A stretch of 64,000 nucleotides of DNA from Escherichia phage vB_EcoM_P54: the sequence record PV390658.1. One strand, 5' to 3'. A model generated the notes under the pieces. The model was not told the origin of the DNA. It worked only from the letters and a program-made list of their open reading frames with translations, and made no database searches. The position numbers and the translations under genes are program-made. Positions 20,927 to 21,957 of this stretch are shown piece after piece (the stretch's first letter is position 1; each line of letters begins with the position of its first letter).

Positions 20927-21514
20927 ATGAAACTGTTAAATATCAAAATCACTGGTACTCGTCCTTTCCTGAGCCACGCTGATACACTGTCAGACCCATT
21001 AAACCCTCTGACAAAATATCACAAGTCTCTGTCCAGTAAACGTAAAAAGACCGACGAAGACTATGCGCTCTTAGCAGAAAGCCAACTGGTAACTTCTTGT
21101 TACTACGATGAGCAGCTAGGTTTTGTTATGAACGGTGAGATGATTGAGGCTTGCATCAAGTCTGGTGCGAAACTCAACAAACTTGGTAAGGTGATTGACC
21201 GAGCCATTATGCTGACAGATGTAGTCTTCCCAATGACTATCAAGAACTGTCCAGCAAACCCACAAGAACTTGCTAAGAATCCAGACTTTATCTATGCTAA
21301 GTCTGTTAAGATTGGCACAGCACGAGTTATGAGCTACCGTCCAATCTTCCGTGACTGGTCTGTAGAGTTTGGTTTGATGTTCGATGAAGAGCAAATCACC
21401 AAAGAAGAACTCTTGATGGTTCTGGAAAATGCTGGTAACCTTTGTGGTGTAGGTGATTGGCGTCCACGCTTTGGTCGTTTTTCTGTAGAAGTTATTTCAG
21501 AAGGTAACGTTTAA
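20927..21514 (+). CDS. hypothetical protein (~195 aa), cassette gene 1 between the twin structured elements
   Basis: ORF track 20912..21514 begins at a GTG; ATG 20927 (MKLLNIK) has a TGGAG RBS. Confidence 0.5.
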
Positions 21515-21516
21515 TT

Positions 21517-21957
21517 ATGAATACAAAAGCATTAGCAGCAAAGTTTAGTTACGGTGACACTGTATCACATTCTGAGATGGATACCTTCTTAGGTATTGCG
21601 AAGCCAACTTATCAAGGTGACATTGTTAAGTACGAAGATGAAATGAAGGCTTATGCACTTACACGTCTAAACCGACTTGAGAAGTTTATTGAGAAGCTCC
21701 TTAAAGAAGAGAAGATTTATCTGGTTGCTTCAATGGGTGTTGGTTATCGTGTGGTTGAGCCTAAGCATCAAGCAACTATTGCAAAACGCAAAATGTCTGG
21801 TAAGATTGGTCGTGCTTTAAAGCAAGCCACTCAAGCAATTGAGAATGTGAACACTATGGCACTTAGCCATCAAGAACGTTCACGACTGATTGAACAGCAA
21901 AACCATTTAGCTGCTATGAAAGCTAACATTAACAAGCAACGTAGAAAACCTTTCTAA
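21517..21957 (+). CDS. hypothetical protein (146 aa), cassette gene 2
   Basis: ORF track; followed by a terminator hairpin at 21969-21992. Confidence 0.5.
   Translation: MNTKALAAKFSYGDTVSHSEMDTFLGIAKPTYQGDIVKYEDEMKAYALTRLNRLEKFIEKLLKEEKIYLVASMGVGYRVVEPKHQATIAKRKMSGKIGRALKQATQAIENVNTMALSHQERSRLIEQQNHLAAMKANINKQRRKPF

Follow-up and report, generated by a model that had tools for sequence, protein, structure and literature searches.

The window analysed here is a 64,000-nucleotide stretch of Escherichia phage vB_EcoM_P54 (PV390658.1). Two adjacent genes, vipr and vap1, lie on its plus strand at positions 20927..21514 and 21517..21957, and the region around them (20519-22243) very probably makes up an entire locus of the VIPR system (Viral Interference Programmable Repeat), type II, from a Felix-O1-like phage. 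Its parts follow one another in the order promoter, two genes for guide RNAs (vrRNAs), vipr, vap1, terminator and two further vrRNA genes. A first-pass annotation had placed two genes at these positions, bounded by structured elements and closed by a terminator, and all of this was borne out. The source phage is a Felix-O1-like myovirus, and many Felixounavirus and Suspvirus genomes of Escherichia, Salmonella, Shigella and Citrobacter phages share 92-96% identity with the ~2-kb region. Across 117 phage records the gene pair shows 95-98% nucleotide identity and is annotated as 'hypothetical protein' throughout. Since the pair is kept in 117 records and the product of the first gene has a solved structure, both open reading frames (ORFs) are genuine genes.

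The first gene runs from ATG 20927, 9 nt downstream of GGAG (20914-20917), to TAA at 21512-21514. A program-made ORF list puts its start at GTG 20912; we placed it at ATG 20927 because the solved orthologue begins MKLLNIK. When the 195-aa product was searched against the sequences in PDB, we obtained a single overwhelming match, chain D of 36pp, 'SUSP1 Vipr protein' (E 8.5e-129, residues 1-195). The copy in the genome of Escherichia phage phiSUSP1 (SUSP1) is identical at 192 of 195 residues (98.5%). Judged by its sequence, the first gene encodes Vipr, a RAMP-fold protein. The residues that the cryo-electron microscopy preprint names for recognition of G1, G2 and Y3, for handling of the skipped base and for clamping of the non-target strand are present (H17, K33, R39, E71, M72, K82, G87, K88, R138, C173, D177, W178 and R179). 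Position 175, given there as T175, is V in the window protein and in the PDB chain alike, and the glycine-rich loop of the window protein spans residues 174-185.

Vipr has been described as a minimal RAMP protein with an RRM core, a glycine-rich loop and a thumb (bioRxiv 10.64898/2026.04.26.720920, 10.64898/2026.04.26.720927; hereafter the VIPR preprints). In SUSP1 it polymerises along a vrRNA of ~100 nt, which consists of 9-16 YNNGG repeats and a conserved tail, each repeat taking up one protomer; the GGY triplets are flipped into pockets of the protein, and the NN dinucleotides remain exposed. These dinucleotides pair with double-stranded DNA reading NNx NNx..., the one-nucleotide-skip rule, giving an R-loop triplex, and the filament blocks transcription without DNA cleavage (VIPR preprints). 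The SUSP1 vrRNAs are expressed and co-purify with Vipr, and the complex shows competitor-resistant binding to one-skip double-stranded DNA only. Transcriptional silencing by the SUSP1 orthologue was shown experimentally (bioRxiv 10.64898/2026.04.26.720920, also PMC13142463). SUSP1 VIPR silences green fluorescent protein (GFP) on either strand and, when reprogrammed, gives 10^5-fold protection against lambda (VIPR preprints). By analogy, Vipr of the phage studied here would coat its vrRNAs with one protomer per repeat.

The structured elements on both flanks, which the first-pass annotation took for twin elements forming the regulatory packaging of the two genes, are the genes of four vrRNAs, one pair on each side of vipr-vap1; their SUSP1 counterparts are guide RNAs bound by Vipr. 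As published, a vrRNA has at least 4 and typically 9-16 YNNGG units in tandem, in which GGY is conserved and NN is hypervariable (bioRxiv 10.64898/2026.04.26.720920, 10.64898/2026.04.26.720927). Our scan for period-5 NNNGG runs on both strands of the window found four YNNGG arrays of at least 7 units, all at the VIPR locus and all on the plus strand. Upstream of vipr, vrA (20616..20719) has 14 repeats (20616-20685) and a 34-nt hairpin/pseudoknot tail (20686-20719), and vrB (20754..20852) has 13 repeats (20754-20818) and a 34-nt pseudoknot tail (20819-20852). Downstream of vap1, vrC (22018..22120) has 14 repeats (22018-22087) and a 33-nt pseudoknot tail, and vrD (22160..22243), the shortest guide, has 10 repeats (22160-22209) and a 34-nt pseudoknot tail. 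Several repeats are degenerate (TGGTG, TGTAG, TGCGT, CAATG and others), and such internal degeneracy is normal for vrRNAs according to the VIPR preprints. The locus holds period-5 tracts only and no repeat-spacer array, and neither protein has a Cas match in PADLOC, Pfam or NCBIfam.

Each of the 33-34-nt tails is identical, or nearly so, to a SUSP1 vrRNA tail. They fold into a 4-bp hairpin whose loop pairs with a 3' segment (H-type pseudoknot). We compared seven distinct tails, taken from the window, from SUSP1 and from a satellite; of the 12 pairs, 9 have changed on both sides and still pair. Overall, 87% of the cells are paired in the seven sequences, compared with 25-45% when the partners are slid, and none of 500 shuffles reached the observed score. 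In an upstream alignment of the window with phage ECP2307 and SUSP1, the promoter, leader, tails and ribosome-binding site are invariant, and nearly all of the differences fall in the repeat tracts, mainly at their NN positions. Rfam returned no match for 20400-22450 at E up to 1.

The guides are shared among phages as a mosaic. Identical copies of vrB occur in LMP25, LMP33 and LMP34; eight records have the same vrC, and ECOH1 and ECP2307 have the same vrD. The vrA guide occurs in no GenBank phage but in two IMG/VR contigs of sample 3300045988. This mosaic sharing points to an exchange of modules by recombination at the conserved boxes and tails.

When 5426 complete E. coli genomes were searched by BLAST with the upstream element, 153 of them proved to have a vrB-like vrRNA, inside an island of ~11-12 kb whose core genes are present in 482 of the 5426. 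The island has one gene each for a large serine recombinase, a baseplate protein and a tape-measure protein, several small genes, frequently an HNH gene, and a long stretch that is non-coding. Insertions are known at no fewer than four sites (yecE; tonB-yciI; wrbA-ymdF; mdtG), and the island is the 'SUSP1 satellite' of the preprint. The satellites form a mosaic family, represented by locus L005 (NZ_CP025892.1 1939900-1955900) and loci L006-L016. The vrRNA borne by the satellite itself (L005 13633-13736; repeats 13633-13702) has a phage-type pseudoknot tail, and in the 153 genomes the satellite has no vipr. A satellite with a vrRNA and without vipr would therefore have to borrow the Vipr of its helper. 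Its own guide (L005 13633-13702) gave background only against the window and three satellite copies, as did the four SUSP1 guides against the satellite copy L005.

We decoded the window guides by replacing each GGY with one wildcard base, following the published rule, and searched them in the fetched satellite loci. The vrA guide (13 units) matched with no more than three mismatches in 11 loci, which make 10 distinct satellite copies, as L003 and L005 cover one region. Its target is perfect (26/26, TCaCAgATgGCtGGtAAgGGtCAgGTtATgGCtGAaGA) in the satellite tape-measure gene at L010 and L013, from strains EC12 (NZ_CP070229.1) and A65EC (NZ_CP182331.1). Elsewhere in the tape-measure gene, vrB (11 units) matched 20/22 positions in strain E110019 (L016 4597-4628). 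Four satellites had a 21/24 match to vrC (12 units; for example L006 11670-11704), and here the guide is antisense to a functionally uncharacterised 107-aa gene.

Control scans covered the satellite loci other than L003, L007, L008 and L010-L016. With skip lengths of 0, 2 and 3 the best scores were 17/26 for vrA, 16/22 for vrB and 16/24 for vrC, and over 200 shuffles of unit order the maxima were 19/26, 17/22 and 19/24, respectively. By the annotated coding coordinates, the skipped base is the wobble (third) codon position in all three targets, as it is for the guides analysed in the VIPR preprints. In the best imperfect matches of vrA with L005 (7836-7873), vrB with L016 and vrC with L006, a hand count put mismatches in 4/9 degenerate GG-less units and in 1/27 canonical units. 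The perfect targets of vrA match its degenerate units too, so this bias has no clear meaning.

The guides do not fit the phage itself. Within the window there was no self-match of 80% or more; the best reached 68-75% across the guides, the top one 21/28. The stretch of the tape-measure protein that contains the vrA target is its most conserved one (satellite SQMAGKGQVMAEE). At the homologous site of the phage (~37048-37088, minus strand, in the ORF 35910-38138) only 20/28 guide positions match, and the two tape-measure proteins share 29% identity overall. Since the phage's own site matches at only 20/28 positions, the vrA guide separates the tail gene of the satellite from that of its helper.

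The second gene starts at ATG 21517, 2 nt past the stop codon of the first, and ends with TAA at 21955-21957, and GAAGG lies within the end of the first gene. This arrangement fits the translational coupling proposed in the first-pass annotation, although it does not prove it. The 146-aa product is identical at 144 of 146 residues to SUSP1 ALH47068.1. Between its vrRNAs the SUSP1 operon holds two coding sequences only, of which ALH47068.1 is the second, and the SUSP1 two-gene operon is described as vipr plus the accessory gene vap1 (bioRxiv 10.64898/2026.04.26.720920, 10.64898/2026.04.26.720927). We infer from this description of the operon, and not from a published accession, that ALH47068.1 is Vap1. 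In SUSP1, vap1 raises VIPR protection by an unknown route (VIPR preprints).

A word-indexed protein search returned near-identical Vap1 copies only, while an exhaustive HMMER search found 237 remote homologues of 145-200 aa with 21-37% identity. None of the 237 matches a Pfam family above noise. The AlphaFold2 model built with 80 aligned homologues had a predicted local distance difference test score (pLDDT) of 96.6, compared with only 69.7 for the single-sequence model. It shows an N-terminal helix, a strand, a helix, a long helix and a beta-hairpin (69-79), followed by a long helical hairpin, and in this model the N-terminal unit looks winged-helix-like. Foldseek found no significant match to the model in the PDB (best E 0.5), and among its weak matches winged-helix DNA binders are frequent (BusR, ScpB, MarR, SaeR and histone H1). 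Given the predicted fold, the preprint's label 'predicted DNA-binding protein' is plausible, though not established. Vap1 most likely serves as a DNA-binding helper, either at the target or at the conserved boxes of the locus itself.

The same layout occurs in an unrelated phage from a skin metagenome (L020). Its Vipr is 41% identical, period-5 GGCNN arrays lie directly upstream of the vipr homologue, and the 182-aa gene directly after it matches the Vap1 profile (hhalign probability 93.6%); the order of arrays, vipr and Vap1 homologue is that of the window. In this phage a called 134-aa ORF (2007-2411) overlies three GGCNN period-5 arrays just 5' of the vipr homologue, and what was called a gene here is probably a vrRNA array.

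All four vrRNAs and vipr are preceded by a conserved box, in which GTCTTY and TTTTAA are separated by 8-10 nt within palindromes, and which occurs nowhere else in the window. The type A box before vrA (20580..20612, 33 nt) has the inverted repeat CACTTAA...TTAAGTG around GTCTTC...TTTTAA and is a candidate promoter or processing signal; the box before vrD (22124..22156) is of the same type. Type B boxes precede vrB (20720..20753; palindrome CCTTTTTAAAAGG plus GTCTTT...TTTTAA) and vrC (21985..22017), the latter overlapping the T-run of the terminator. A fifth copy, GTCTTC...TTTAC (20864..20886), precedes the ribosome-binding site of vipr. All are on the plus strand, and an extended motif is common to the five copies (20589-20609, 20732-20753, 20864-20886, 21997-22017 and 22133-22153). 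The box is nearly invariant across the window, SUSP1 and ECP2307, except that the one before vrA differs at four bases in ECP2307, and its inner hairpin shows one compensatory change from C-G to T-A among the three phages. As sigma-70 promoters the boxes were not convincing, their hexamer spacing being too short.

The VIPR preprints do not address the biogenesis of type II vrRNAs or the mechanism of Vap1. One could speculate that the 22-33-nt box is the site where a winged-helix-like Vap1 switches on or processes the guides, which would make Vap1 a regulator of the locus and not a co-effector at the targets, and that modules of box plus tail are the recombinational units by which guides are swapped. 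We regard this as rather unlikely. If it were true, guide swapping by such modules would be a primitive alternative to spacer acquisition.

The promoter of the locus is of the sigma-70 type (TTGACA-16-TATACT, 20519..20546, plus strand), matches 11 of 12 consensus positions, is the same in ECP2307 and SUSP1, and stands in front of vrA, vrB and vipr-vap1. Its -10 element and the start of the leader are spanned by an inverted repeat of 8 bp (GGTGAGTA at 20535-20542 and TACTCACC at 20567-20574). In SUSP1 and ECP2307 this repeat is unchanged, and it may serve as an operator. After vap1, an intrinsic terminator (21969..21991, plus strand) is formed by AGCCTC-TTCG-GAGGCT and a T-run. The neighbours of vipr-vap1 are genes of DNA metabolism (ligase, dihydrofolate reductase and thymidylate synthase) and small ORFs.

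Taken together, these results leave us highly confident that this is a functional VIPR locus directed at satellites. This phage has every VIPR part in intact form, its vrRNA tails are structured, and three of its four guides decode to genes of the satellite, none to the phage. The function of the locus would be RNA-guided DNA binding and transcriptional silencing against competing mobile elements, here the E. coli satellite. Several points weigh against this reading. Both vrC and vrD lie downstream of the terminator, and the route of their transcription is unexplained. The best matches of vrB and vrC (87-91%) were never perfect in the 14 satellite copies sampled, and vrD (pattern GAnGAnACnCGnATnTAnCTnATnTT) had no target with three or fewer mismatches in the 16 loci. 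Expression of the four RNAs, formation of the ribonucleoprotein and silencing in this phage would follow by analogy with SUSP1, and that the satellite exploits this phage is suggested by the homology of the tail genes (29% identity of the tape-measure proteins) together with the preprint. We also searched vrD more widely; it had no exact match in IMG/VR, and its seven exact matches in GTDB representative genomes were all in unrelated taxa, where ~17 are expected by chance for 18 specified bases.

The first-pass annotation could assign neither gene by motif and proposed both as candidates for host takeover or anti-defence. As far as motif libraries go this was fair, since Pfam, NCBIfam and PADLOC have no family for either protein and PHROGs returned only the unknown-function families 4652 and 5926; the solved structure 36pp and the identity with SUSP1 now name them vipr and vap1. 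PADLOC holds models of defence systems, and its lack of matches is neutral on the question of host takeover or anti-defence. A two-protein cassette of that kind, with the flanking elements as attenuators or terminators that regulate its expression, would agree with the early-type placement behind a sigma-70 promoter, with the terminator at the end and with the empty library searches. We nevertheless consider it highly improbable: the first gene encodes the solved Vipr protein, the elements on the flanks are built exactly like vrRNAs and end in SUSP1 tails, and decoding of their variable dinucleotides leads to satellite genes at a level far above background, which is not expected of a regulatory element. 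What holds of the proposal is that the two genes form one unit with the flanking elements, behind a sigma-70 promoter among genes of DNA metabolism, and that they are conflict genes, with no homology found to housekeeping phage proteins; their function is most probably neither host takeover nor counter-defence but RNA-guided warfare between mobile elements.

It is also conceivable that Vipr and its vrRNAs act on RNA and not on DNA, by antisense silencing of satellite mRNAs or by Cas6-like RNA processing. In favour are the RAMP/RRM nature of Vipr, the ability of the filament to pair with single-stranded RNA in the cryo-electron microscopy preprint, and the complementarity between vrC and the mRNA of the gene it targets. 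However, the vrA and vrB guides read in the sense of the tape-measure mRNA and therefore cannot pair with it, which supports a DNA target. Moreover, the preprints describe mostly incomplete filaments and no triplex on RNA targets, while SUSP1 VIPR silences GFP on either strand and binds double-stranded DNA despite competitor. This leaves an RNA target very unlikely. The degenerate repeats and the lack of a target for vrD would also fit a decaying or inactive copy, with the matches as relics. Both ORFs are intact, however, and 98-99% identical to the functional SUSP1 genes, with the contact residues kept; the promoter and tails are invariant and the boxes nearly so; vrA has perfect 26/26 targets; and internal degeneracy is normal for vrRNAs. 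Decay is the least probable of the alternatives that we considered.

Under the satellite-directed VIPR reading, in a host that bears the satellite Vipr-vrRNA filaments would occupy the tape-measure gene and the small 107-aa gene of the satellite. The bound filaments would silence both genes, Vap1 may help by binding DNA, and silencing would stop the satellite from exploiting the phage, which would thus escape parasitism.

The closest relative is the type II VIPR of SUSP1 (KT454805.2; PDB 36pp), which also follows the DNA ligase gene. Promoter, boxes, ribosome-binding site, terminator and two types of vrRNA tail are common to SUSP1 and the window, as are vipr (192/195) and vap1 (144/146), and the guides of both phages are aimed at the same E. 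coli satellite family. In contrast, the window has two vrRNAs upstream and two downstream where SUSP1 has one and three, one upstream module of tail, box and repeats is absent upstream in SUSP1, and every NN guide sequence differs. According to the preprints (bioRxiv 10.64898/2026.04.26.720920, 10.64898/2026.04.26.720927), the type II VIPR of a Pseudomonas fulva prophage likewise has a vrRNA array, vipr, vap1, the one-nucleotide-skip code and the R-loop triplex. It belongs to a prophage in another host, and its guides are mostly directed against the lysis-lysogeny regulators of resident prophages and not against satellite tail genes.

Class 1 CRISPR-Cas RAMPs (Cas7, Cas5 and Cas6, Cascade-type) resemble Vipr in the RRM core, in the loop rich in glycine and in the thumb that flips bases periodically, as well as in forming a protein filament on a guide RNA and in RNA-guided DNA binding. 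Unlike these systems, VIPR has no CRISPR array, cas1/cas2, nuclease or protospacer-adjacent motif, consists of one small protein and is encoded by a phage. Its guide is non-contiguous, with 2 of 5 RNA bases reading 2 of 3 DNA bases. The Vibrio phage ICP1 reportedly carries a type I-F CRISPR-Cas system with guides against PLE, a chromosomal satellite that parasitises it (Seed et al. 2013). This too is a lytic phage with an RNA-guided system against a satellite, but a full adaptive and DNA-degrading CRISPR-Cas, whereas type II VIPR has no nuclease or adaptation genes and is thought to silence.

Within type II VIPR, a system already published in two 2026 bioRxiv preprints, the locus of the window belongs to the SUSP1 clade. 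This clade is the type example of the published family, and there is little conceptual novelty beyond the preprints. Our analysis reproduced the published one-nucleotide-skip code independently with the guides of another phage. In ~117 Felix-O1-like GenBank records the two genes are 'hypothetical' and the guide RNAs are either unannotated or labelled 'repeat_region' or 'terminator'; these can now be named vipr, vap1 and vrRNA. Strains with perfect natural vrA targets were also identified, which allows direct tests of the anti-satellite role.

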